From NCBI GenBank assembly GCA_050181585.1, contig JBFXDA010000013.1:21409-85408 (forward strand): 64,000 nt of DNA, read 5' to 3'. This document shows positions 39,405-52,709 of the stretch, piece after piece (position 1 is the stretch's first letter; every line of letters starts with the position of its first letter). The translations under genes were made by a program, and so were the position numbers. Under the pieces are notes generated by a model. The model was not told the origin of the DNA, made no database searches, and saw nothing but the letters and a program-made list of their open reading frames with translations. The stretch comes from Reyranellaceae bacterium. GTDB taxonomy: Bacteria > Pseudomonadota > Alphaproteobacteria > Reyranellales > JAQSWP01.

Positions 39405-39480
<76 letters not shown>

Positions 39481-39488
39481 ATAAAATC

Positions 39489-39518
39489 AAGGGCTTAGCT
39501 GGAAACGGCTAAGCCCTT
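39489..39518 (+). terminator. Hairpin terminator after the tRNA; related hairpins follow the other two att copies
   Basis: aagggcttagc-tggaaacg-gctaagccctt. Confidence 0.75.
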
Positions 39519-39527
39519 TGGTTTATG

Positions 39528-39547
39528 GGGTAAGCACCGGGTAAGCA
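39528..39547 (+). repeat. GGGTAAGCA x2 (11-bp period), putative integrase arm-type sites at the left island end
   Basis: The same 9-mer occurs at 50595, 50606 and 50713 near the right end. Confidence 0.75.
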
Positions 39548-39573
39548 TGGGTCGCGATATCCACCCTCGGCAC

Positions 39574-40761
39574 TCAATCTAGTCCGGCCCGTACGAGCTT
39601 CGCCTGCTTCGGATCGTACACATACCCCGCGATGGTCCCGTCCTTGATCCGCTCGACGGCTTCATCGATCACGAACAGCGGCACCAGAAACCATTCGCGC
39701 GGCGCCACCGGCTGGCCGAACCGGTCCGTAATCTCGATCTCGAGCCGCGCCGGGTCGAAGATACGGTGGATAAGGTTTTCGAGCCTGATCCGATTGATAT
39801 TGGACAGCCTGTAGGTGGCAATGATCTCCACGTCAGCCAGCAGGAAGGTCGGATCGAGCCTGGCATTGGCGATCCGCGCCTCTACCTTTCCGCCGGTGAC
39901 GCCGATCTTGTGCAGCAGGTTCCGGTGCTGCGCCACCACCGGGTTGTCGGCCTTGCTGCGCAGGACATAGATCGTTCCGCTGGGAAGGTCGCCGTCTTCG
40001 GCCTCGCCAGCGAACAGCGGCCCCGCGACGGGATCGGTAATCCGTCGCCCTGCCCCGTCACGGTGAAGCGCGCGCTGTAGCGAGCGCAGCAACACGTCGC
40101 TTTCGGTCCCATTGTCGTAGATGACGCGCAGCCGGCTGTCGCGGCGTTCGTACTCCGTCATGAACTCCTCGCCGAGTTCGGCGACATAGGCGATCTGGCC
40201 GCCGACGATGAAAAATTCGCCCATCTTGATCTCGGCCATGGTCTGGAAGGGCCGCGTCTGGCGTATGCCGGCGTCGAGGTCTTTTCTGGCCTGGGCGAAC
40301 AGCGGCTCGAACGTCTCGAAGTCCTTGCAGGGGGTGCGGTTGGCGATTTCCTCGGCCGCGCGCTTGTCTGCGGCGGTGCGGACATGGCGCAATTCCATGA
40401 TGTCGGGCGCACCTTCCACCCCTTCCAGCTCCGCGATCAATTCGTCGTCGTCCATTGTCTCGACGAGCGCTGCCGGAGCCGTCGCCGCACCGGCCAGGAG
40501 GCCTTGCCGGTCCAGCGGCCCAAGAAGCGAACGGCATTCCTCAAGCGCGCGCAGCCGGTCGAGCCGCACCGCATAGAGCCGCTCGAAGATGTCGCGGTCT
40601 TCGCCATGCAGCGGAGCGCGGCCGTGCATGTCGGCGAAGCGCTGGATTTCCTCGAAGCCGGCAATGATGCGCTCCTCGCGCGCCGGGCGCCCGCCCTTCT
40701 TCTCGGGTGGGGCATAATCGGCGAGCGCCACCGCCAGTTGGTCAAGATCGGGGTCAGTCAT
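39574..40761 (-). CDS. GIY-YIG/T5orf172 (MUG113-like) nuclease-domain protein, YeeC-like
   Basis: GTIYVLRS..HKIGVT..VEARIANA..LENLIHRIF..PREWF. Confidence 0.85.
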   Translation of the reverse strand: MTDPDLDQLAVALADYAPPEKKGGRPAREERIIAGFEEIQRFADMHGRAPLHGEDRDIFERLYAVRLDRLRALEECRSLLGPLDRQGLLAGAATAPAALVETMDDDELIAELEGVEGAPDIMELRHVRTAADKRAAEEIANRTPCKDFETFEPLFAQARKDLDAGIRQTRPFQTMAEIKMGEFFIVGGQIAYVAELGEEFMTEYERRDSRLRVIYDNGTESDVLLRSLQRALHRDGAGRRITDPVAGPLFAGEAEDGDLPSGTIYVLRSKADNPVVAQHRNLLHKIGVTGGKVEARIANARLDPTFLLADVEIIATYRLSNINRIRLENLIHRIFDPARLEIEITDRFGQPVAPREWFLVPLFVIDEAVERIKDGTIAGYVYDPKQAKLVRAGLD

Positions 40762-42808
40762 AGCGCCCCTCTTTCCTGAACCGCATGAAGGCGGTCGCGC
40801 CTTCGGCCATGCGCCGCTCCCATGCGTCCTGCGCGTCGATGGACGGCAGCCGGCCGCGTTCCTTTTTGAACCGGGCGGCGCGGACGGCCAGTTCCCGCGC
40901 CTCGTCCGGCGTCAGGCTGGTGCGCTTGGCGGCAATCGCCGCCGCGACCTGTTTCAGGCTGCCCTCGCTCATGGCCTTGGCGAGGATGGCGTAGGCTTCG
41001 CCGAACGGATTGATCCGGTCGATCAGGTCGATGTCGAGTTCGCGCACGTCCATGGCGAATTTGCGCACGCCGTCGATCAGGGCGGTATTGGCGCCCGGCT
41101 CTTTGTCATCGCCAAGCGCGATCTGCTTTGCCCGTTGCGTGATGGTGAGGGCGGCAATGGCGTGCTGGCGCACGGCCTCCCGGTCTTCCTCGTCGAGTTC
41201 GGGATATTTGTCCTTGATGATCTTCCCCATCCGCGCCTGGGTCAGTTCCTCCGGGACCAGCTCCTCGTCGAACAGCCCGCGCTCGATGGCCGTCCTGTCC
41301 TGCACGAAGGCGGCGATCACCTCGTTCAGGTCCTCGGTGCAGATACGCGCCGCCTCTCTGCTCTTCGGCTCGGCAAGGCCCCTGATCTCGATGTGGAACT
41401 GCCCGGTCTGCGCATTGAAGCCGACATTGGGCTTGCCGGCATCGTAGCCGCCTTCGCCGTAGTCGAAGCCTTCGACCGCAATGCTCTGCGGATTTTTCGG
41501 GGTGAAGTTGAAGCGCGGCGCCAGCACCTGTTCCATCAGCAGGCTGGCGGCGATGGCTTTCAGCGTATCGTTGACGGCCTCGACGACGGCCTCCTCGCTG
41601 GCATCCGGCTCGGCGATCAGGTTTGTGAAGCGGGCGCGGGTCTTGCCCGGCGCATCGCGCGTCGCGCGGCCGATGATCTGCACGATCTCGGTGAGGCTGG
41701 ACCGATAGCCGACCGTCAGCGCGTGTTCGCACCAGATCCAGTCGAAGCCTTCCTTCGCCATGCCCAGCGCGATGATTATGTCCACATGGTCGCGGTTGGT
41801 CTTCTGCGCCGGGTCTTTCAGCGCGGCCGAAACCTTGTCGCGCCTGGCCGGATCGTCATCGACGAGATCGGCGATGCGCAGCACGCGGCCATCGGGCCGC
41901 TTGACCAGCTGGAAGCCGGTGGCGGGATCGGTCCCCTGCCAGTCGCCCAGGGCCTCGATGATGTGTTCCACCTCCCTGATCTTGTCCTTCGTGCTTTCGC
42001 GCGAATTGACGCTCGGGATGTGGACGATGGCTTTCTCTGCCGGGTTCAGGACGGCGAGGATGTCGTCGGCATAGGAGCCGGAATAGAAGAAATAGCCGAT
42101 GTCGAGCCGTTTGAGATGTTCGTAGCCGTTGAGCTGCTCATAGTAGGTGTAGGTGACGGTATCGAATTTCGCCTCATCGTGCGGCGCCAGCACCGGCACG
42201 GCGTCGCCCCGGAAATAGGAGCCGGTCATGGCGACGACATGCGCCCTGTCGCGGGCAATGAACGCGCCAAGATGCTGACCGAGCCTGCTGTCGGGATCGG
42301 CCGAAACGTGATGGAACTCGTCCACCGCGATCAGTCTTCCGTCGAACTTCTCGACGCCGAACCTCTCCACCGCGAAGCGGAACGTCGCATGGGTGCAGAC
42401 CAGCGCCTTGTCGCCGCTGTCGAGGAACGCGCCAACGGCATTGACCTTGCCGCCGTTGTCCGCGCCGGGCGCGTCGCACAGATTCCATTTCGGCTGGACC
42501 GTCCAGTCGGCCCAGAAGCCGTATCTGGCCAGCGGCTCGTCATGGAAGCTCGCGCCGATGGATTTTTCCGGCACCACGATGATCGCTTGCCGTACGCCCT
42601 GATTGGCCAGCTTGTCGAGGGCGATGAACATGAGCGCCCGGCTCTTGCCTGACGCCGGCGGCGACTTGATGAGAAGATATTGCTCGCCGCGCCGCTCGTA
42701 GGCGCGCTCCTGCATCGGCCGCATGCCGAGCGCATTGGCCCTGGTCGAGCTGCCGGTGCGGGCATAGGAAACCGAGACGGCGGGAACGGATTTGATGCTG
42801 TCGGTCAT
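40754..42808 (-). CDS. SF2 DEAD/DEAH-box helicase, YeeB-like
   Basis: SPPASGKS, VDEFHH, MTGSYFR, GMAKEGFD, QIIGRATR. Confidence 0.9.
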   Translation of the reverse strand: MTDSIKSVPAVSVSYARTGSSTRANALGMRPMQERAYERRGEQYLLIKSPPASGKSRALMFIALDKLANQGVRQAIIVVPEKSIGASFHDEPLARYGFWADWTVQPKWNLCDAPGADNGGKVNAVGAFLDSGDKALVCTHATFRFAVERFGVEKFDGRLIAVDEFHHVSADPDSRLGQHLGAFIARDRAHVVAMTGSYFRGDAVPVLAPHDEAKFDTVTYTYYEQLNGYEHLKRLDIGYFFYSGSYADDILAVLNPAEKAIVHIPSVNSRESTKDKIREVEHIIEALGDWQGTDPATGFQLVKRPDGRVLRIADLVDDDPARRDKVSAALKDPAQKTNRDHVDIIIALGMAKEGFDWIWCEHALTVGYRSSLTEIVQIIGRATRDAPGKTRARFTNLIAEPDASEEAVVEAVNDTLKAIAASLLMEQVLAPRFNFTPKNPQSIAVEGFDYGEGGYDAGKPNVGFNAQTGQFHIEIRGLAEPKSREAARICTEDLNEVIAAFVQDRTAIERGLFDEELVPEELTQARMGKIIKDKYPELDEEDREAVRQHAIAALTITQRAKQIALGDDKEPGANTALIDGVRKFAMDVRELDIDLIDRINPFGEAYAILAKAMSEGSLKQVAAAIAAKRTSLTPDEARELAVRAARFKKERGRLPSIDAQDAWERRMAEGATAFMRFRKEGRYD

Positions 42809-45582
42809 GCCTTCGTCCCCGTCTTCGTTCTCTTCGTATTGACCTTTCCCATCGCGCCGCCGGCGGCTGTCATTTTCGTGTAGAGGTCGAACAGCTTTTC
42901 CAGCCGCTCCGTGTCGTTGCGGAAGCGGCGGCCGATATAGATGCGTTCAAGCACTTCGTCGTTGCGCTCGTGCGCCGCCCGCAGATCGGCCGGCATGTTC
43001 TCGGGATCGTAGAGATCGGCGATGGTGGCCGGGAAATGCGCCTCGCGCGCCAGCAGGATGTCCTCGGCGCAGCTTGTCAGGTCGGCCTTGTTTTTCTCGG
43101 TGAGGGTCGGGACTGGAAAGGTGTTCCAACCGAGTGTGTTCGAATAGCGATAATCGGTCTTCAGTTTGCCGCAGACTGTACCGATCCACACAAGATGCAG
43201 CCGGGAAGCGATCAGCGCCATGTTCCAGAGCGGGGCATCGTATAGCCCAAACGCTGTATTGGGGAAAACCACGTTGTTGTTCTCGAGCGTGACCGGAAGG
43301 TATGGCCTCGACTCCGAGGACACGTTTGGAATGGCAATTGACCATTCTTTACACGCGTGCATCTCGCGGAACTGATGCGGCCGTTCGGCCATCCTGATTG
43401 CTGCTGCATCCGGTGACGTGAGGCGGCTTGCTCTTACATTATCAATCCTATGCCTTACTTTCGGATGCTCCATAGCGTCTGCTGGAACATTCGGCTGCAG
43501 GAACCACAGGCACCACCGTTGTGTGCCTTTAACCAATTCGGCTCCTCCCTTGAATATTTTTATGTAGGATTGCGGCAATCCCTCACTTAGGAGTTCCGCC
43601 CTCTGAACACCGTCAAGCAAAAGGCCTTCGGATAGCCCATAGTAGTTTCCCTTGACCATCTGCGGGAGGGCGGACAAGGGGCGTACTGAACGCTCGATGA
43701 ATACGTTCCTGCCGGGAACTAGATACGGGCTTATCTGCGCCACTTCCTGCTTGATGTCCTCGTCAAAGAGGTAACAAGCACCTTCCTTCGTGCGCGAGCA
43801 ACCCACCACAACCACCGTGACGGTGGCGTTCTCGGTAGCCAAATTTCTCCACCGGAATGATCGCACAGCAAAGTCAATGCGCAGGCCATCCGCAAGGAAC
43901 GGTTTCCAGAAATAAAATATATTTTGACCTTGGGAGATCGAATTTGTGCTGACAAATGCGAACTTGGCGACGGTAGCGGCGCTAAATCGTGCCGCCTTCC
44001 AGAACCAACCGCAGATGTAGTCGAAAGACCGCCAATTCAGGTCAGTGTTAAGAAAGCACTGTCGGATGTCGTCCTTTTGCTCTCTCGTTTGGTCTGCGTT
44101 GCCTTTATAAGGTGGATTCCCGCAGATATAAGTTTCTCCGCCCTCGTTCTCGAAGTCGATTTGTGCCTGATCCAGCGGCGAATTGAAAAGGTCGTCGCCG
44201 TGCAGCTTCACACCCGTCCCAGTCGGCGGGCAGATGCTCAGCCAGTCAAGCCTCAGCGCGTTGCCGCAGGTAATCCAGTTCTGCGAATCGAGCGGCAGGA
44301 ACTCGGCGAGCGCTTCCTTCTGGCCGCGATACAGCACATCGCACTGGTATTCGGCGACGATCAGCGCCAGCCGCGCGATCTCGGCCGGGAAATCGCGCAG
44401 CTCGATGCCGCGAAAATTCGTCAACGGAATGTCGCTGCGCCGCGCCGCCTCGCCGCGCCGCCGGTTGATCTCGGCCTCGATTTCCCGCATCGCCTTGTAG
44501 GCAATGACCAGGAAATTGCCCGATCCGCAGGCCGGGTCGAACACCCTGATTCGCGCCATGCGGTTGCGCAGGTTCAGCAGCTTGCGGGAATTGCCCCCGG
44601 CCTCCTCAAGCTGCGCCCGCAGATCGTCGAGGAACAGCGGATTGAGCAGCTTCAGGATGTTGGGCACGGATGTGTAATGCATGCCCAGCGCGCCGCGTTC
44701 CTCGTCGTCGGCGACGGCCTGGATCATCGAGCCGAAAATGTCCGGGTTGATCTGCTTCCAGTCCAGCCCGCCGATGTGCAGCAGGTAGGAGCGCGCGATG
44801 CGGCTGAAGCGCGGCGTCTCGGCGCTGCCGGAGAACAGCCCGCCATTGACGTAGGGGAATACGTCCGCCCAGCGCGGCAGCCCGGCGCTGGCGCGATCCC
44901 TGGCCGGCGTGTTCATGGCCCGGAAAATCTCGCCGATCACCGCATGGGTGTTCGACGAGTCCCGCGCGCTCATCTGGTCGATGGTGGCGGTGAACAGCCC
45001 CTCGCCGTTGAAGATGTCGGTATCCTCGGCGAAGAAGCAGAAGATCAGCCGCGCCATGAAATGGTTCATGTCCGGCCGGCGCGCGGCCGTGCCCCAGTCG
45101 GGATTGTCCTTCAGCAATTCGACATAGAGCCGGTTGAGGCGGCTTGTCGCCCTGATGTCGAAGGCGTTCTCGCGAATCTGCCGGACGGTGCTGATGCCGG
45201 CCAGCGGCAGGAAGAAGCCGAAATGGTCGGGAAAATCCTTGTAGGCGCAGGCGACCGTATCGCCGGAGCTCAGGTCCTCGGCCTCGAAATCCGCGCCATC
45301 CGTCGCCAGGATGAATTTCGCCTTGGCCCTGGCCGTCGCCGGGCTGGCCTTGAGCGCCGCCAGCGTCTTCGAAACCGCGCCGGCCGGGCAGACGGCGATA
45401 TGGATGTTGTTCGTCTGGAGGACGCCGCCCAGATCGGATTTGTTCGATGCGCCAGCGCGCAGCCGCCGGATCGTCGTCTCCTTGTTGCCGAAAGCCTGAA
45501 GGAAGGCGAACGGAAACTCGGCCGCATCGAAGGGCTGTTCGGCCAGCGCGGAGATCGCCTGTTCGATTTCGACGGCGTTCAT
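42805..45582 (-). CDS. MmeI/YeeA-like N6-adenine DNA methyltransferase (Type IIG/IIL-like)
   Basis: FPYVNGGLF, INPDIFGSMIQ, GMHYTS, FDPACGSGNFL (motif I), GNPPY (motif IV), YRYSNTLGWNTFP. Confidence 0.92.
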   Translation of the reverse strand: MNAVEIEQAISALAEQPFDAAEFPFAFLQAFGNKETTIRRLRAGASNKSDLGGVLQTNNIHIAVCPAGAVSKTLAALKASPATARAKAKFILATDGADFEAEDLSSGDTVACAYKDFPDHFGFFLPLAGISTVRQIRENAFDIRATSRLNRLYVELLKDNPDWGTAARRPDMNHFMARLIFCFFAEDTDIFNGEGLFTATIDQMSARDSSNTHAVIGEIFRAMNTPARDRASAGLPRWADVFPYVNGGLFSGSAETPRFSRIARSYLLHIGGLDWKQINPDIFGSMIQAVADDEERGALGMHYTSVPNILKLLNPLFLDDLRAQLEEAGGNSRKLLNLRNRMARIRVFDPACGSGNFLVIAYKAMREIEAEINRRRGEAARRSDIPLTNFRGIELRDFPAEIARLALIVAEYQCDVLYRGQKEALAEFLPLDSQNWITCGNALRLDWLSICPPTGTGVKLHGDDLFNSPLDQAQIDFENEGGETYICGNPPYKGNADQTREQKDDIRQCFLNTDLNWRSFDYICGWFWKAARFSAATVAKFAFVSTNSISQGQNIFYFWKPFLADGLRIDFAVRSFRWRNLATENATVTVVVVGCSRTKEGACYLFDEDIKQEVAQISPYLVPGRNVFIERSVRPLSALPQMVKGNYYGLSEGLLLDGVQRAELLSEGLPQSYIKIFKGGAELVKGTQRWCLWFLQPNVPADAMEHPKVRHRIDNVRASRLTSPDAAAIRMAERPHQFREMHACKEWSIAIPNVSSESRPYLPVTLENNNVVFPNTAFGLYDAPLWNMALIASRLHLVWIGTVCGKLKTDYRYSNTLGWNTFPVPTLTEKNKADLTSCAEDILLAREAHFPATIADLYDPENMPADLRAAHERNDEVLERIYIGRRFRNDTERLEKLFDLYTKMTAAGGAMGKVNTKRTKTGTKA

Positions 45583-45713
45583 CGCGCGCTATTGGACCCG
45601 GCGACCCTGACGGCGCGAACGGCGACGGCCGTTACCGCAGGCGCGTGCGTTGTCCCTTGTTCTGGCGAGTTCCCCATGAGTCGAGAATAGGCCGGCGAAG
45701 GTCCGTCAGGCAA

Positions 45714-46823
45714 TCAAGCCGGGCCGCCAGTCCCGTTGCGCGCCATTTCCGCAGCCGCGCGGCGCAGCAGGTCCGTTACCTCAGGCGATTCTTGCCGGGC
45801 TGTCGCCAGTCCTAGAATAATTTCGGCCTGCCGCCCCGCCGATACCTCTCCATAACTGGTGAGCGTCGTCAGCACCCCCTCATGCCCGAGATTCTGCGAC
45901 CACGCCTTCAATTCCTCGGGCGGCAGACGGAGCCGATAGGCAAGTTGCATCAACGTCTTCCGCAAGCTGTGCGGCGGGAAATAGGGCAGTCCGGCCTTGA
46001 GAAAAGCGCGCTTGAAAATGGCGCGGATCGGCGTGGCGTTGCTCCAATGCGCGCGCGTCAGGCCAACGGGGCGAAAGCGACGATCCGGGCCGGGTTCGAT
46101 GCGGGTAGCCGGGAATAGCGGGTCGCCAGGGCTATACAGCGCCTCGCCCAGCTGGCGTTCGACCCATTCGATTACGATTTGCCGCGCATCGCCGCCGACC
46201 GGAAAGAACCAGGTGGCGAACGATTTCGAGAATTTGGTTCGCACCTCATGCGCATCGAAAACCACGCGATTGGCGGCCGTCTCGACATGCCGCAGTTTCA
46301 GCGACGCAACCGCACCGTCGCGCGCCCCCGTCAGCAGTATGAAAGCGATCAGCGCCCGGTCGCGGCGCTCGATTGAGGTTCCGTCCGGCATTCGGGCGAT
46401 GACGGCATGGACCTGCTCCAGCGACGGCACGCGCGGCTCGCGCCGGGTCTTGGCGATGCGCGTTTCGCCCCGCGACATGTTGAAGTACTCGGCATCGCCA
46501 TAGGTCAGCCGACTTTTGAAACCCGGCTGATCCCTCAACCAGATAAAAAATGCCTTCAGCGCTGCTAGAGTAGAATACTGCGTTGCGACGCTCAGAGCGT
46601 CGCCGGTCCTGCCATTCCGCTGTCCGGCAAGGTGACGTTTGAAGCCTATGGCCTGCTGGGGATTGAACGTCTTGAAAGACTGGAACCGGGTGTAGCTTTC
46701 GAAGCGATGCAAGGCTTTGGCAATGGCATCGAGCGATGCCTCGCTGTGCTGGCCGGCTTCGCGCTTGTAGGTCCGGTATTTGTGTTTCAAGCGCTCGTTT
46801 TCGGGATCGTGAGACTTCGCCAT
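45714..46823 (-). CDS. Second tyrosine recombinase (XerC/D-like site-specific integrase)
   Basis: RDRALIAFILLTGARDG, PHSLRKT, NLGHE..TLTSYG catalytic pattern. Confidence 0.88.
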   Translation of the reverse strand: MAKSHDPENERLKHKYRTYKREAGQHSEASLDAIAKALHRFESYTRFQSFKTFNPQQAIGFKRHLAGQRNGRTGDALSVATQYSTLAALKAFFIWLRDQPGFKSRLTYGDAEYFNMSRGETRIAKTRREPRVPSLEQVHAVIARMPDGTSIERRDRALIAFILLTGARDGAVASLKLRHVETAANRVVFDAHEVRTKFSKSFATWFFPVGGDARQIVIEWVERQLGEALYSPGDPLFPATRIEPGPDRRFRPVGLTRAHWSNATPIRAIFKRAFLKAGLPYFPPHSLRKTLMQLAYRLRLPPEELKAWSQNLGHEGVLTTLTSYGEVSAGRQAEIILGLATARQESPEVTDLLRRAAAEMARNGTGGPA

Positions 46824-46858
46824 CGACCTTCCTTTCCAGAGTCACAATTCAGGCGGGG

Positions 46859-47305
46859 TTATCGCCTGTCGCCTATGTGCGATTCAGCCTGCGGTCCGTT
46901 GCCGCGAAGACTCCACCTGAAGGCCTCGAACGCGGGCGCGCTGGCCCGCCGATGCATCAAGGTTGTGCAGCACGGGCAGACGGCCCGGATGTTGCCGGCG
47001 CCAGCCTGCGCCGGGAGATATTCGACCAGTGCGGCGTCGGGTTTCCTCGGCTCCCGGCACCGCAGGCAGTAAAGATGGCCGGGCGGACAGGGCCGCTTGG
47101 CGCTGGCGCGGCGGCGCGACAGGAAATCGCGCAAGTCCGCACCCCGGATCAGGACAGGCCATGATCCGGCGACGCTTGCCAGGCCGGCCTTCAACCATGT
47201 GCGGATCGTGTTCTTGTGGGTGTCCAAGGCGCGCGCCGCCTCCTCCACCGTATAAGAACAGTGCAGCTTGGCCAGGCGGGGGTTGGGCGCGCGACGATGC
47301 GCCAT
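46859..47305 (-). CDS. HTH DNA-binding protein with C-terminal CxxC...CxxC (zinc-ribbon-like) region
   Basis: YTVEEAARALDTHKNTIRTWLKAGL HTH; YCLRCR and VCPCC; ATG at 47305. Confidence 0.78.
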   Translation of the reverse strand: MAHRRAPNPRLAKLHCSYTVEEAARALDTHKNTIRTWLKAGLASVAGSWPVLIRGADLRDFLSRRRASAKRPCPPGHLYCLRCREPRKPDAALVEYLPAQAGAGNIRAVCPCCTTLMHRRASAPAFEAFRWSLRGNGPQAESHIGDRR

Positions 47306-47333
47306 CGCCTTCGCTCGCAAACCGGGACAGACG

Positions 47334-47567
47334 CTAGGCGGGGTCGCTGGTGCTGCGGCGAGGGCCGGAGCTTCTGGATTGCGCCCATCCCAGCAAATCG
47401 TCGGGCCGATAGAGCGGGCGGCGGCCAAACGATTGGAAGATCGGCCCGCCGCCCAGGCAGGCGTATTTCGCCAAGGTGCCGGCGGCGACTTTGAAACCCC
47501 GCGCCGTCAGAAAATCGGACGCTTCCTTGCGGGTGAGCGGGCGGGCCGATTCGGTCGAGTCTTCCAT
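47334..47567 (-). CDS. Excisionase/AlpA-like small HTH protein (putative recombination directionality factor)
   Basis: LTRKEASDFL..TLAKYACLGGGPIFQSFGRRPLYRPDDLLGWA. Confidence 0.82.
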   Translation of the reverse strand: MEDSTESARPLTRKEASDFLTARGFKVAAGTLAKYACLGGGPIFQSFGRRPLYRPDDLLGWAQSRSSGPRRSTSDPA

Positions 47568-47676
47568 GTCCTATCCTTTCGCATTCGCAACGCTGCCGGA
47601 ATTTCCCGGCCGATGCGCGAAAGGTGGAGCGAAACGACTGTTGGAAATAGGTGCCACGAATTATTGGCGATTCGAA

Positions 47677-49224
47677 TCACCGCTTCGAACTGCGGGGACC
47701 GGATTGCGACCAATTCCTGTTGCCGCTGTCAGCGACCGCACGAGCCCATGCCCGATCAAAGGCTCTCTTGCTGATCGAGAACTTTGCCAGGCATTCGTCG
47801 CGAACAGCTTCCTTGGACCGGGCAGGCCGATCTTCTTTTTTCATAAGCTCCGTCAGCCATTTTCGGCACAGCGTTTCGCCGCCAGCCGTGCCCGTTTGCA
47901 TGGAACTGCCGGCTCCCGAAGCGCCCGTTTCGCGTCGGTGCCCAAGACGATCCGCATTGGCGCGAACCTCGCTCGTACGGAATAGGAGATCAATCCATTC
48001 CGGCATGCCTTCCCGAACAGCCTTGTAATCTTCCATCGACCCTTCGCCAGAAGGCTCTAAACTGTTGCGTTGCATGTTCAGTTGAACCGGAAGGCGAATA
48101 TGATCGGTCGGAATGGTTTCCCATTCCACTGATGCTGTTGACCGTCGCCCCCGCAGTACCAACGCGTTCTCCCGAATGGCCTTAAACAGCAGGCGTTCTA
48201 AATCCTGTATTCGGTTGACGAACCATTCCCATCCCGATTTCTGGTCGCCCAGTCCCGAAACACTGGCAATATTCCGGAAAACAAGCAGTTCGACGGAAGC
48301 CGCTTCCAAATAACGACTATGGGCTTTTTCCAGCCGCTGCTTTGCTTCAAGCACATTCGTTTCCGTCACTTGGCTTCTGATTTCGGCGTCGCTAATCGAG
48401 AAAGGGTCATTCGAAAGGCGATGCGGTTCTAGAAGTTCTAAAAGGTATGGACGTCGCGCCTCGCGATAGTGCCGCCGAGCCAGGCTTAGGCGATACCTTG
48501 CGATACGAAAATCGGATAGGCGGTCTCCGACGGCGGTGAAGAGCTTCCACGTGGAGGGCGGTATTGCCATCCCGAGCGCCATCCAACTTAAAACTTCGGT
48601 CGCAGTCGAATCCGGATCATCAGAAAGTCCGTCATTCAATAACCCGCTCAACGCAAGCGGTTCAATCCTGCCCATCTCTCGCTGCCATCGCAGATCGCGG
48701 GCAGCTAACTGCTTTTCGGTCAGGTAAAATTCAGAACGGGAACTGGCGGATTCACGCTCGACCAGCACCATTAAGGCATCGTGTCCGCCTCTATTCTGCC
48801 TCTTGCGAGGCGACGGCGGCCAGATTGCGACCGCGCGTTCAGCTGAGACCCTCAACTGGCGCCAAGTCGTCGCCTGCCCGATAGCGCCATCCCTTGGCCG
48901 CGCATAGAGTCCCCCTTTGCTTGGCGTAATTTCCAACCAAGCCCATTGCCGGCTTGGCACCTTCTTTTGCGTTCTTTTGCCAGGCGCCTCGCCGTACGCC
49001 GGAAGCCTGCCCGTGCATAGCGCATGCAGAATGAACCGATTAGCGCGAACAATGTCCGGAGCAATATTGCTCCTGGTCAAAACGTAAAGGAGCGATGCGA
49101 TCCGACGACCGAAGTCTACTGACCCATCGGAAAACTTTGCGACTAGGGTTTCGTCCCGTGCAACTACCCAGACGAGGAGTTGGGCAAAATTCCATGTCGG
49201 CTTGTCGGCGTCGAAATCAGGCAT
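47677..49224 (-). CDS. Hypothetical 515-aa protein with an apparent internal domain duplication and helical C-terminus
   Basis: Long ORF between integrase and xis-like gene, same strand, lower GC than host; no recognisable catalytic motif. Confidence 0.72.
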   Translation of the reverse strand: MPDFDADKPTWNFAQLLVWVVARDETLVAKFSDGSVDFGRRIASLLYVLTRSNIAPDIVRANRFILHALCTGRLPAYGEAPGKRTQKKVPSRQWAWLEITPSKGGLYARPRDGAIGQATTWRQLRVSAERAVAIWPPSPRKRQNRGGHDALMVLVERESASSRSEFYLTEKQLAARDLRWQREMGRIEPLALSGLLNDGLSDDPDSTATEVLSWMALGMAIPPSTWKLFTAVGDRLSDFRIARYRLSLARRHYREARRPYLLELLEPHRLSNDPFSISDAEIRSQVTETNVLEAKQRLEKAHSRYLEAASVELLVFRNIASVSGLGDQKSGWEWFVNRIQDLERLLFKAIRENALVLRGRRSTASVEWETIPTDHIRLPVQLNMQRNSLEPSGEGSMEDYKAVREGMPEWIDLLFRTSEVRANADRLGHRRETGASGAGSSMQTGTAGGETLCRKWLTELMKKEDRPARSKEAVRDECLAKFSISKRAFDRAWARAVADSGNRNWSQSGPRSSKR

Positions 49225-49300
49225 GGACCGGCGACCTCAAGATTCGAGGATTTCGCGAGCCTAGCGCCTGCAATGTCCGAAAGTCGAATGCTCGCTCGCC

Positions 49301-50572
49301 TTAGCGCCTCAACCGGACAACCTTGTCTTTCTTGCCTTCCATTGCAGCCGCGATTTGCAGCGCCGTGCGGTCGGCGACGGCGCGCACCGGGTCGAGGTCG
49401 AGATGGCTGTAGCGTTCGGTTGTCGCCGCCTGCGTATGCCCCAGCACCTTGCCGACGATGTAGAGCGATGAACCGCCGGCCACCGCGACGCTGGCGAAGC
49501 CGTGGCGCAGATCGTGGATGCGAACGCCATGCAGGCCGGCCGCTTTGGCGACCTTGCGCCATACCGCCGGCAGGCCGACATGATGGCCCTCGCCGCGCGC
49601 GGCCGGAAAGACGTAGTCGGGACGCTTCGAACTGCTACCCATTCGGGTGACCGGCTTCAGACCGGACAGCACAGCCAGCGCCGGCGCACCCAGCGGAACC
49701 ACCTTCGCGCCAGTTTTGGAATCGGGCAGCCGCAGCACCCCATGCTCGAAATCGACGTGTTCCCAGCGCAGCGACAGGATTTCGTTCTTGCGGCAGCCCG
49801 TCAGCAGCAGCAGGCGAAGTGCCGCCAGCGACTGCCGGTTGGTGCCGACCTTCTCCGCCGCCGCCAGCGCTTCGCCCAGCTTCGCCAGTTCCTTGGCGCT
49901 CAGGAAGCGTTCGCGGCGCTGAAGCTTGTTCAGGCTGACGCCCTTGGACGGGTTGTCGGCGCAGTAGCCCTGCGACACCGCCCATTGCAGCATCGCCCCC
50001 AGAACAACCGTCGCCCGCGCGGCGGTGCCCGGCCCGCCGGTCACGATGGCACGGCCATGCTTCTTGTCCGACTTCTCGTCCGTGGCGGTCTTGCCCTCGG
50101 TCACGTCGCGCTGGAAGCGCTGGATATCGGCCTTGGTAAGGGCTGAGAGATGGCGGCGGCCCAGCAGCGGCACGACATGCCGGCGCAGATTGGAGGCGTC
50201 CGTAGCCCAGCTGGACGCCTTCTTGGCGGGTTTGGCAGCCGGGCCGTCCTTGAGATAGAGATCGACCAGCGCCGCGATGGTCGGCGTCGCCTTGACCGTC
50301 GCTTTCTCGCCGGCAGGATCGGCCTTCCCCGTCGCTACGGCGCTCAGCAGGGCGCGGGCGGTCTTTCTGGCTTCCTCCGGCGTCAGCACCCCTACCTTGC
50401 CCACCGTATAGCGGCGGGAGCGCCGTTCGGCGTTCCGGTACTGAATGATATAGGCGCCGGCACCGGAGCGCTTCAGGCGCAGCCCGAAGCCCGCCAGCGC
50501 ATCGTCCCAGAGAACCAAGTCGGTATCGCCGGGCCGCAGGGAATCGATCAGGCGTTTGGTGATCTTCGGCAT
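49301..50572 (-). CDS. int: P4-like tyrosine integrase with N-terminal arm-binding domain (DUF4102-type)
   Basis: MPKITKRLIDSL..WDDALAGFGLR, LLLTGCRKNEI, KTG, HDLRHGFAS, KVLGH..TERYSH. Confidence 0.95.
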   Translation of the reverse strand: MPKITKRLIDSLRPGDTDLVLWDDALAGFGLRLKRSGAGAYIIQYRNAERRSRRYTVGKVGVLTPEEARKTARALLSAVATGKADPAGEKATVKATPTIAALVDLYLKDGPAAKPAKKASSWATDASNLRRHVVPLLGRRHLSALTKADIQRFQRDVTEGKTATDEKSDKKHGRAIVTGGPGTAARATVVLGAMLQWAVSQGYCADNPSKGVSLNKLQRRERFLSAKELAKLGEALAAAEKVGTNRQSLAALRLLLLTGCRKNEILSLRWEHVDFEHGVLRLPDSKTGAKVVPLGAPALAVLSGLKPVTRMGSSSKRPDYVFPAARGEGHHVGLPAVWRKVAKAAGLHGVRIHDLRHGFASVAVAGGSSLYIVGKVLGHTQAATTERYSHLDLDPVRAVADRTALQIAAAMEGKKDKVVRLRR

Positions 50573-50594
50573 CCGGCCCCTCCCCGATCCCATC

Positions 50595-50721
50595 GGGTAA
50601 GCAGTGGGTAAGCAGCCGGATTAAATTACCTCAACATTCCGGAAATTACCATTACATTCAAAATGCCTTATTTTAAGCTACTATTTCGCAACAGTTTGCT
50701 CACATCAAACGTGGGTAAGCA
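50595..50721 (+). repeat. GGGTAAGCA x3 (50595, 50606, 50713), putative arm-type sites at the right island end
   Basis: Exact matches to the left-end motif. Confidence 0.75.
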
Positions 50722-50741
50722 CCGGCAATTAAATATCCTCA

Positions 50742-50789
50742 ACAATGGCATTGTAGAGGTCAGCGGTTCGATCCCGCTTGGCTCCACCA
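50742..50789 (+). repeat. attR: exact copy of the tRNA-Ala 3' 48 bp
   Basis: acaatggcattgtagaggtcagcggttcgatcccgcttggctccacca. Confidence 0.95.
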
Positions 50790-51149
50790 ACAAAGACAAG
50801 GGCTTAGCCGGAAACGGTTAGGCCCTTATCTTTTTTCGTACTAAATACCCACAACGATGCGATTCACGGATCAATTGAGAGTCCATGATTTTTGATGCTA
50901 TTACCTACACGCGGCAATCAGTGGCAAAATTGCACGGTTAGCATCAGAGGGCCTGCTAACTGATCCGCCTTACTGGCCACCCAAAGAAGATCACGCAAAG
51001 TAGACTCGTTCATATGTATTTGAAAGGAACAGAAGAGCAATACCAGCGGTCAGCAGCCTTGTTGGAACAATAAACAAGAGCACCGGACTTTCTCAACATT
51101 TCAGGAGCTATGCATATTCCCCATTAAGGGAAGGCGCTTCAGGCTGGAG

Positions 51150-51608
51150 CTATTTGGTGACAGTCAGAATCTCCTTCGCATCAAAAATACCTGCTGTGTC
51201 GGAGGTCACTTGTCCGTGGCGGAACATCCTGATCATGAAATCAACGCCGGGCTTAATGTAGGGAGTTACGTATCCAGGAGTTGAATGGGTTCTGCTTCGG
51301 GTCGAGAAAGAGGCTTGCCCATAATTCGAGATCGAAGCTGTGCCGGTCGTTGTTGTGTAGGTCTGACCGGGCATTATGGTAGCCCCCGTCTGACTCATAT
51401 CCTTCGAGTCAAGGATCGTAAAATATTGATAACCTTTATCCAATGTGGTTCGCGCCGCGCTACGCATTGCTGCGCGAACTACCTGACCTTGATCGTTGAA
51501 TTTTGTGCCTCGTCCGGAGATCATTGCGACATCTGGCGCAACTACAGTCGAGCGAGCGGTAGCGCATCCGGCCAAGACCAGAACCAACAGCATAATAACC
51601 GGCTTCAT
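51150..51608 (-). CDS. Predicted lipoprotein (resembles CC0125/CC1285-type small lipoproteins)
   Basis: MKPVIMLLVLVLAG-C lipobox; AARTTLDKGYQYF. Confidence 0.78.
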   Translation of the reverse strand: MKPVIMLLVLVLAGCATARSTVVAPDVAMISGRGTKFNDQGQVVRAAMRSAARTTLDKGYQYFTILDSKDMSQTGATIMPGQTYTTTTGTASISNYGQASFSTRSRTHSTPGYVTPYIKPGVDFMIRMFRHGQVTSDTAGIFDAKEILTVTK

Positions 51609-51667
51609 GTATCCCCCTTTTTTCTTGCCTCCTGATGCCCAGCTAAAAGAAGTTTTCGACGAGTTCG

Positions 51668-52276
51668 CTACTTGGCAGTCAGAGTGCTTACCATCGCACT
51701 CACCTCACTTGGCTCGAACCGTCGCGTATCTGAGCGGCACATGTTGCCAAGCAAAGATCGGCCGTAGCCATAGGCATTGCCACCGGAGAGCAGCGAGAAT
51801 CCGAAGCACTGAAATGGCGCACCTCCGGGCGGGTGAAAACGGAATGTCCGATACGAAATAGATCCGGCGGTTAGAAGGACTGACCAGTCCAAGGCATGAG
51901 GCGCTATCTCTTGGTCATAGTTTTGTATGATTTGGGAGAGTTCCTCGCGGGATGCCCCGCGAATTGCGCTTTCTTGTTCCGCGATCATCAAGGATGCGGA
52001 GTAGATCAATTTATGCGATCCGCTTTCATAGCTACCTGCAATCGCATAGGACCGAAACCTGCCATTCCCGCCTTCAAGCGAAGAATAGTACCCCGTTGCA
52101 ACGCAATGCACGTCTGCCGGTCCCATCAAACGAGATTGGTTGCATGGAATCTCCCGAAAAGTTTGGGCATAAGCAAACTGAGGCAACAATGCGGAGATGC
52201 AGCCTAAAAGAACTAACCAAAATCGATGCCCGACCAAAGGCAAAGCTGCATCCATTTTCTTCTCCCCGAAGATCAC
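51668..52276 (-). CDS. Exported hypothetical protein (start may be the second Met)
   Basis: Signal-peptide-like FWLVLLGCISALLPQFAYA; several Cys; same strand as the lipoprotein gene. Confidence 0.65.
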   Translation of the reverse strand: MIFGEKKMDAALPLVGHRFWLVLLGCISALLPQFAYAQTFREIPCNQSRLMGPADVHCVATGYYSSLEGGNGRFRSYAIAGSYESGSHKLIYSASLMIAEQESAIRGASREELSQIIQNYDQEIAPHALDWSVLLTAGSISYRTFRFHPPGGAPFQCFGFSLLSGGNAYGYGRSLLGNMCRSDTRRFEPSEVSAMVSTLTAK

Positions 52277-52536
52277 ATGCCAAGAAGCATATCCGCAGTG
52301 AACACGGGAATACTATCCACTATCAGTTGTATTGTTATATTAAATAGTCATCATATGTGGTGCGAACGATTCAAAGTAGCTCTCGGCCATTGTATTGGTC
52401 GTTAGTGGACCTACTCAATTGATTGAGGATGATAAGTGAACCCAGCAGACTATTCTAAGAGGAAACAGCGAAAATTGAATCAGCATAACCAACGCTCAAC
52501 AGAAACCCGTAAGATCCGTAGAAACATTAACCATTA

Positions 52537-52586
52537 CTACAATGGCATTGTTGAGCTCAGCGGTTCGATCTCGCTTGGCTCCACCA
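52537..52586 (+). repeat. Degenerate third copy of the tRNA-Ala 3' end (older attR)
   Basis: ctacaatggcattgttgagctcagcggttcgatctcgcttggctccacca: three mismatches to the tRNA. Confidence 0.9.
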
Positions 52587-52709
52587 ACAAAGACAAGGGC
52601 CCGCCGGCAACGGTCGGGCCCTTCGCTTTTGCGCCGCGCCGTTGCCGGCCCGCATTGTCGTCCGCATCGTTCGCCGATTAAGCTACCGGAAAAGGGGAGA
52701 AGGCACGGC

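Follow-up and report, generated by a model that had tools for sequence, protein, structure and literature searches.

In the genome of a Reyranellaceae bacterium (Alphaproteobacteria; assembly GCA_050181585.1), we analyzed 64,000 nt of contig JBFXDA010000013.1 (positions 21,409 to 85,408, referred to as the window), which contain a small genomic island at a tRNA-Ala gene. Besides a P4-type integrase (INT), this island encodes a second tyrosine recombinase (tentatively referred to as REC) and, directly upstream of it, a small protein with a helix-turn-helix (HTH) and a zinc ribbon (HZn). Judged from gene content and alignments, HZn and REC are one site-specific tyrosine recombinase encoded in two pieces, and together with an AlpA-type gene they form a conserved operon in the backbone of widespread small islands at tRNA and transfer-messenger RNA (tmRNA) genes that carry restriction-modification (RM) or other defense cargo. 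We suggest, with a probability of about 0.4, that HZn/REC acts on a site borne by the element itself, most plausibly as a Cre-, Xer-, or TnpI-like resolvase that separates multimers or tandem copies formed after excision and thereby keeps the excised island monomeric.

REC looks catalytically intact. It matches Pfam Phage_integrase (PF00589) at 34.3 bits (cut-off 27.1), and the six residues R168, K197, H285, R288, H314, and Y324 are invariant among 24 homologs. The original prediction, made from the DNA alone, had described a 369-aa (amino acid) recombinase with an intact-looking catalytic set and had named a catalytically dead enzyme as the case that would speak against it; the invariant R-K-H-R-H-Y set bears out the former and is not that of a dead enzyme. 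The predicted fold (AlphaFold; predicted local distance difference test (pLDDT) 82) best matches Brujita Int, Cre, XerA, and IntI (Foldseek probability 1.0), and REC is placed in the tyrosine recombinase superfamily on both counts considered, the ordered RKHRHY set and the profile score combined with a two-domain fold. No arm-binding domain was found in REC by Pfam or in the model, and no repeated site for REC was found in the window. When compared with the closest relative (locus L086, 87% REC identity; relatives are cited by such numbers below), REC, HZn, and the 77-aa gene that precedes HZn have ratios of nonsynonymous to synonymous substitution rates (dN/dS) of 0.15, 0.23, and 0.14, respectively, and these low values indicate purifying selection on all three genes.

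Two familiar identities of REC were rejected. A chromosomal XerC/XerD resolvase does not fit the NCBIfam scores, which are far too low (30-41 bits vs. cut-offs of 220-371), or the sporadic occurrence of the gene in its order. The integron integrase IntI was dismissed since neither TIGR02249 nor PRK15417 is matched, the cargo has no bounding repeats, and the cargo junctions are ragged. A PDB sequence search with a REC profile and a PADLOC scan of REC gave no match.

The start of HZn was set at the ATG that matches its homologs (148 aa); the longest open reading frame (ORF) begins at TTG 47428. HZn scores 32.5 bits against HTH_17 (cut-off 27), and C80, C83, C110, and C113 are invariant in 22 homologs, with C73 nearly so, which agrees with the HTH-CxxC/CxxC gene originally read at this position. 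The model (pLDDT 84) shows a winged HTH of the MerR/excisionase type followed by a beta-rich zinc ribbon. In a fold search, the N-terminal domain resembles the winged HTH of gpNu1, BldC, and RacA, and the matches are limited to this part. At the codon where HZn stops in the window (TAA), L086 reads TCA and runs on for 13 residues, overlapping the REC start, while L001, L087, L089, L091, and L011 have TGA at the same codon. These stops take away the conserved C-terminal tail and may reflect either recurrent truncation or read-through.

Several lines of evidence connect HZn to REC. In about 62-70 of 82 loci, HZn is the gene immediately upstream of REC, and the pairwise identities of the two proteins co-vary (r = 0.85). 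In a structure search of the ESM Atlas, both proteins match one cluster of 518-aa proteins, and a genome scan with HZn led to open frames of 540-565 aa in which HZn and REC are fused. One such protein (L109, 540 aa) contains HTH_17, SAM-like, and Phage_integrase domains, and aligns with HZn across residues 11-117 (E 1e-13, including both CxxC pairs) and with REC across residues 170-508 (E 1e-37). A word-based search for longer HZn homologs returned only a T5orf172 fusion; the REC fusions came from the Atlas and the genome scan. Adjacency, co-varying identities, and natural fusions together argue that HZn is the dedicated partner of REC, so that the earlier suggestion of a dedicated accessory factor is well supported; put more exactly, HZn corresponds to a detached N-terminal DNA-binding domain of REC supplied in trans. 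A metagenome protein (P0121, 386 aa) joins an HZn-like N-terminal part (54% identical across 82% of HZn) to a T5orf172/MUG113 domain, which is also the domain encoded by the last cargo gene in the window.

Homologs of REC are abundant (> 8000 protein clusters), and the best 120, each with a length of about 365 aa, share 57-87% identity with it. Scanning one genome per species revealed > 540 REC loci, 80 of which were fetched (52-60% identity); these come from Alpha-, Beta-, and Gammaproteobacteria, Acidobacteriota, Desulfobacterota, Nitrospirota, Nitrospinota, and other groups. A recurrent backbone consists of two genes with no known function, c5 (~400 aa) and c4 (~260 aa), an AlpA gene (Pfam, 2e-24), sometimes a gene for a RepB-primase-like protein, HZn, and REC, often followed by a convergent integrase and a tRNA gene, and the commonest layout is ‘REC> INT<’. 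In the lineage of the window (L001, L086, L087, L089, and G009), INT is followed by a variable gene and the 77-aa gene, and then by HZn, REC, the cargo, and tRNA-Ala. At about 4.6 kb, the smallest islands (L003) contain only INT, three small genes, HZn, and REC. In two alphaproteobacterial islands at tRNA-Arg (L031 and L082), the block from the 77-aa gene through HZn and REC to the cargo has, with INT and attR as reference, the opposite orientation to that in the window. REC is a single-copy gene in its own genome, was not found in five genomes of the same genus (0/5), and is present in 5 of 33 genomes of a sister family; only four homologs occur among 72,556 plasmid records, and none among 50,697 phage records.

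The integrase of these islands is exchangeable. An arm-type integrase is present within 10 kb of REC in 44 of ~78 loci, and each of the five loci that seemingly had no integrase contains another Phage_integrase-domain gene 4-15 kb from REC (weak in L065, E 2e-6). The tRNA genes near the loci include those for Ala, Ser, Phe, Leu, Arg, Thr, Val, Asn, Gln, and SeC, as well as tmRNA. Across loci, the median pairwise identity is 62% for REC and 50% for HZn vs. 33% for INT. REC does not follow the tRNA target, whereas INT changes with it. By these comparisons, REC is a conserved accessory recombinase, and the island backbone to which it belongs can change its integrase.

A decayed relative is present at a tRNA-Phe gene (L007, 9028-18812, with 47-nt repeats). 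It has kept REC and a type I RM system, its HZn is reduced to the last 60 nt, it has no integrase, and its opposite strand carries an HD-domain-like gene. A role of REC as the sole integrase of this element was considered and dropped, as the element is decayed and its HZn deleted.

A k-mer search for shared non-coding motifs also found a near-identical palindrome, AAAAAGTTGGGCGGAATTTTTTCGCCCAAC, which directly follows the c4 stop codon in ~25 islands of several phyla, at a distance of 150-230 nt upstream of AlpA (including L014, L015, L019, L023, L032, L033, L039, L041, L042, L048, L062, L063, L066, L068, and L074). The sequence of its arms is conserved and the center variable, and it may serve as an origin, as an oriT, or as a protein site. 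It was rejected as a general REC site since it is missing from the window and its close kin.

In the window, the att sites fit INT. The island (island 1; 39481-50790, 11.3 kb) lies in a stretch of lower G+C (~39 to 53 kb; window ~70%) and is delimited by repeats of the tRNA-Ala 3′ half, which recurs directly at 50742-50827 (93%; exact across the tRNA part) and a third time at 52539-52624 (76%). All eight genes of island 1 (39574 to 50593) are on the minus strand, as originally stated, and the accompanying claim that rep, relaxase, and capsid genes are lacking also held, with no such match in Pfam, NCBIfam, PADLOC, and PHROGs scans. INT adjoins attR and a set of short repeats, GGGTAAGCA, of which the 64-kb window contains five exact copies (0.16 expected; five reached in 0/100 shuffles), all confined to the island ends and in a single orientation. 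These repeats are likely the arm-type sites of INT. The att sites were assigned to INT because it has an arm-binding domain and REC has none, and because the layout of GGGTAAGCA is classical for arm-type sites; its Arm-DNA-bind_3 domain and the five repeats at the island ends class INT with the arm-type (lambda/P4-like) integrases. INT is also located at one end of the repeat-delimited relatives L001, L031, and L084, and adjoins tRNA or tmRNA genes in many others. We infer that integration into and excision from the chromosome are done by INT, not by REC.

A short nucleotide block next to REC (Table 1) is a candidate for the site on which HZn/REC may act. Its conservation peaks at 0.82-0.85 over 77 loci, and it overlaps the coding sequence of the HZn C-terminal tail (...HI.ES..P.VNSD.). 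Within it, an ATA codon and an AGT/TGT codon have third bases that do not vary across genomes of 41-66% G+C, whereas among 330 REC codons invariant third positions occur only at Trp and Met; the constraint therefore seems to be on the nucleotides. In the window, L001, L087, L089, L091, and L011, an in-frame stop precedes the HZn tail, and the bases downstream are still kept. The block stays upstream of REC where HZn is deleted (L007) or where genes are inserted before the block (L067), and it stays with HZn where an ORF is inserted after it (L087). There is one copy per locus, and no second copy was found in any locus or in the 92%-complete genome. No conserved RNA fold was found in the block, and hidden or overprinted ORFs ending at the conserved TAR/TGA were rejected since the open frames are short (medians of 20 and 7 codons). 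The block could be either a cis site for HZn/REC or a signal for the expression of REC.

In the mechanism that we propose, INT would handle integration and excision, and HZn/REC, probably made together with an excision regulator, would act on a conserved site carried by the element, for which the 40-nt block at the 5′ end of REC would be the best candidate. The step of multimer resolution or maintenance is our best guess, and is the least certain part of this explanation. Dimer resolution, one of the roles listed in the original prediction, is likewise a possible one. A RepB-primase-like gene is present between AlpA and HZn in some relatives, so the excised circles of those relatives may replicate. 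Several observations weigh against the proposal. The island of the window has no recognizable replication gene, which leaves the need for multimer resolution unproven, and neither a recombination product nor a second site was seen for HZn/REC. The in-frame TAA at 46859-46861 removes the last 13 HZn residues found in L086. Instead of a recombination site, the block may be an expression signal for REC, or in part simply the HZn C-terminal tail. Finally, fused relatives occupy the classical integrase position beside tRNA-Ser genes, so the family can include true integrases.

This last point also bears on a different function, namely a second integration system by which the excised island would be inserted into a helper phage, a plasmid, an integrative and conjugative element, or a secondary chromosomal site, in order to hitch-hike or to use hosts without the tRNA site. 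The fused homologs (29-30% identity; L109 and L107) lie directly beside tRNA-Ser, like ordinary island integrases. No direct repeats bounding islands of these fused integrases were found within 20 kb. An excisionase-type HTH protein just upstream of a recombinase recalls xis-int pairs, and the islands contain no detected transfer genes, both of which would suit such a system. We nevertheless consider it rather unlikely. HZn, REC, and the block are never split to opposite island ends, which indicates that the observed islands were not inserted through the block; the single copy of the block in the 92%-complete genome and the near absence of REC homologs from plasmids (4/72,556) and their absence from the phage records point the same way.

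The presence of two recombinases in one island, with an HTH_17 gene upstream of each type of recombinase system, and the inversion in L031/L082 could also mean that the 77-aa gene, HZn, and REC (the trio) form a xis-int module whose own element lies within the INT island or has become fused with it; a nested element had been considered in the original prediction. No internal direct or inverted repeats that would bound such an element were found, however. The trio has the same neighbors (AlpA, c4, and c5, or their equivalents) across phyla, every locus that could be checked has another integrase, and the smallest islands (L003) have little besides INT, HZn, and REC. A nested element is accordingly very unlikely.

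The original prediction had also placed the trio upstream of a methyltransferase operon, which was confirmed (the methyltransferase gene begins 131 nt past the REC stop codon), and had suggested, as its leading idea, that REC may capture or exchange this cargo, with the cargo boundary around 45590-45710 as the place to look for a site. The cargo behind REC is indeed variable, even in the closest relative: L086 has an RM-like set (DUF2357/PDDEXK_7 and an N6_N4 methylase), a 1156-aa MmeI enzyme is encoded in L001, L089, and L085, type I RM systems occur in at least six loci, and no cargo is present there in L003 and L029. Constant cargo, named beforehand as evidence against such exchange, is thus not what these loci show. 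Further, the cargo of the window recurs behind a REC of 57% protein identity in L053 (11207-18368 vs. window 39655-45581), with 72-81% DNA identity compared with 65% for the adjoining REC genes, which indicates that cargo has moved between backbones. The L053 island is at tRNA-Thr, and its methylase and helicase genes are separated by an additional gene of 392 aa.

The boundaries of the cargo, however, do not look like those of an integron-like system. The junctions between backbone and cargo are scattered about 45-150 nt past the REC stop codon (homology with L086 stops at 44 nt, and with L001 further on), and aligning the downstream boundaries of homologous pairs, as had been recommended for finding a recombination site, gave no conserved motif across 74 loci. 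The cargo of the window and the same cargo in L053 share no flank, and repeats around the cargo or the trio in the window are only short matches of chance size. REC and the methylase are separated by a 32-codon ORF with homology to the beginning of another gene, the 1156-aa MmeI gene located behind REC in L001 and L089 (5′ end), and the ATGGGGA of the ORF coincides with the start codon of that gene in L001; by this alignment the ORF is the retained scar of an earlier, different cargo gene. In the ‘REC> INT<’ layout there is nothing downstream of REC and the cargo lies upstream of the backbone, and another variable slot, flanked by INT and the 77-aa gene, lies away from REC. Given ragged junctions and cargo that does not always adjoin REC, capture next to REC is very unlikely, and a capture site around 45590-45710 is not supported. 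Homologous recombination in conserved flanking sequences (REC gene and tRNA/att) suffices to explain how cargo is exchanged.

It is also conceivable that HZn/REC no longer recombines island DNA, and serves as a DNA-binding regulator or a defense component, for example on incoming DNA. The constant association with defense cargo, the T5orf172 nuclease domain joined to an HZn-like domain in P0121, and the truncated HZn tail in the window would be in line with this role. Against it stand the invariance of the six catalytic residues across wide divergence, the lack of a PADLOC match for REC, and the retention of the pair in islands without any cargo, and we regard it as quite improbable. Somewhat broader is the idea that HZn/REC and the block are an undescribed recombination system on island DNA, shared across phyla, which would join, resolve, or reshuffle islands and modules, or form cointegrates with helpers. 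If true, such a system would explain how one backbone is kept while integrases, orientation, and cargo are swapped in islands without transfer genes; we consider it unlikely.

Table 1. Positions of the island features in the window, with the basis of each assignment.
Feature	Position	Strand	Basis or remark
tRNA-Ala(GGC)	39405-39480	+	ARAGORN
attL core, 3′ half of tRNA-Ala	39433-39480	+	direct repeats of the same half further on
Two tandem GGGTAAGCA repeats beside attL	39528-39547	+	48-67 nt inside attL
Cargo gene 3, T5orf172/MUG113-domain protein (YeeC-like), 395 aa	39574-40761	-	PF13455 3.1e-12, PF10544 3.2e-11
Cargo gene 2, superfamily 2 (SF2) helicase (YeeB-like), 684 aa	40754-42808	-	Pfam DEAD 2.2e-5, ResIII 2.5e-4, both just below cut-offs
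Cargo gene 1, MmeI-family methyltransferase (DnmA/YeeA-like), 925 aa	42805-45582	-	five MmeI Pfam domains, MmeI_Mtase 3.1e-109
32-codon ORF between REC and methylase	45579-45677	-	alignment; ATGGGGA start, ATGA overlap with methylase start
REC, 369-aa tyrosine recombinase, core-binding and catalytic domains	45714-46823	-	Pfam PF00589
Conserved block CACATAR-N21-TRAAYWGTGACTT, 15-55 nt upstream of REC start	46839-46879	-	alignment of 77 loci
HZn, 148 aa, MerR/Xis-type winged HTH and CxxC...CxxC zinc ribbon	46859-47305	-	Pfam HTH_17
77-aa HTH protein (s77), slot held by AlpA in related islands	47334-47567	-	homology via L031/L082
515-aa protein, variable backbone slot	47677-49224	-	no match in four libraries
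INT, 430-aa P4-type integrase with arm-binding domain	49301-50593	-	Phage_integrase 1.3e-22, Arm-DNA-bind_3 1.6e-10 (Pfam)
Three GGGTAAGCA repeats, INT start to attR	50595, 50606, 50713 (span 50595-50721)	+	
attR, exact tRNA-Ala 3′-end copy	50742-50789	+	

The 77-aa gene was originally described as xis-like, and this held only by way of its relatives. The protein of the window itself has no Pfam match, even at E 10, and BLASTP shows no similarity between it and the L039 AlpA. Relatives with 41-43% identity to it (L031 and L082), on the other hand, match HTH_17 (4e-11 and 1.6e-8, respectively) and, weakly, AlpA, and the same slot is occupied by Phage_AlpA (2e-24) in about 22 other loci. The 77-aa protein is thus likely an excision regulator, as far as homology and position can indicate. 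Upstream of its gene, ~75 nt (window 47580-47650) are conserved with L086 and L087, including a hairpin-like sequence, GCCGGGAAATTCCGGC; the stretch probably serves the trio as its promoter/operator region.

The variable slot that separates INT from the 77-aa gene encodes proteins of 515, 500, and 520 aa in the window, L086, and L087, respectively, 296 aa in L001, 238 aa in L089, and a DUF3102 protein in L003. The 515-aa protein of the window has no match in Pfam, NCBIfam, PADLOC, or PHROGs. On the cargo side, the methyltransferase is also recognized by PADLOC as REase_MTase_IIG (898 bits), and the helicase, whose Pfam scores fall short, has a 69% identical homolog within the same cargo of L053. 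Beyond island 1, a 1.8-kb remnant of a second island (50790-52590, G+C 51-55%) extends from the second copy of the tRNA-Ala 3′ end to the third. It has no integrase, and its two small minus-strand ORFs (51150-51608 and 51668-52276) have signal-peptide-like N termini and no family match.

The maintenance and movement of the common small tRNA islands that carry defense genes are poorly understood. A second recombinase with its own DNA-binding subunit, which shows twice the conservation of the integrase and occurs from Alphaproteobacteria to Acidobacteriota, marks a definable island family and points to an unrecognized step in the island life cycle. The HZn/REC pair can also serve as a search handle for such islands and their RM or defense cargo, and a compact, possibly self-contained system of recombinase and site would be of interest as a tool. 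If HZn/REC turns out to be an ordinary multimer resolvase, the result is a useful annotation and unsurprising.

Simple tyrosine recombinases with a site next to their own gene include Cre/loxP of P1, XerS/difSL, XerH/difH, and TnpI/IRS of Tn4430. REC is similar to these in having two domains, the full RKHRHY set, and no arm-binding domain, its fold matches include Cre, XerA, XerD, and XerH, and a single conserved DNA block, as yet only a candidate site, is present beside its gene. Unlike them, REC has a separate HTH/zinc-ribbon partner and is located in tRNA islands, not in plasmids, phages, or at chromosomal dif; its sequence is also too distant for a PDB profile match, and NCBIfam Xer scores are far below cut-off. 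The fused HTH_17-zinc-ribbon-integrases (L109, L107, and the 518-aa Atlas cluster) share the domain order, the CxxC pairs, and a KAWSxxLGHE motif with the split forms (30% identity to HZn and 29% to REC), but are single polypeptides encoded beside tRNA-Ser, and lack the P.VNSD tail and the nucleotide block.

Several tyrosine recombinases with a small accessory protein are also found in the recombinase-in-trio (RIT) elements, the bipartite modules (BIM), and Tn554 (TnpA/TnpB/TnpC), where the genes are contiguous and move as a unit. The island of the window similarly has more than one tyrosine recombinase and a small accessory protein. A module of this kind was rejected, as INT and REC are separated by three or more genes, their distance and orientation vary, and INT is exchangeable.

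As to the cargo, clusters of DnmA(YeeA), YeeB, and YeeC were found in mobile, low-GC regions (PMC9973331). The cargo of the window belongs to this type by its Pfam domains and gene order, with a co-oriented MmeI-like methylase, SF2 helicase, and T5orf172 protein in the same order; the likeness concerns the cargo only, and is known here from the genes alone. The island itself resembles the int-alpA ‘phage defence elements’ located at tRNA/tmRNA genes without transfer genes (PMC12595487) and the P4-like satellite hotspots (PMC13586616) in being small, located at a tRNA gene, bounded by direct repeats, and equipped with a P4-type integrase, an AlpA-type gene, and variable defense cargo, with no conjugation or capsid genes; islands with only an oriT have been reported as well (10.64898/2026.01.13.699239). 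The descriptions in PMC12595487 and PMC13586616, however, rest on one integrase, and no description of a conserved second, split recombinase in such islands was found in the literature searched. The enzyme superfamily and the kind of island are therefore known, while the split recombinase with its fixed partner, and its conservation as a second recombinase together with a nucleotide-conserved block, are new.

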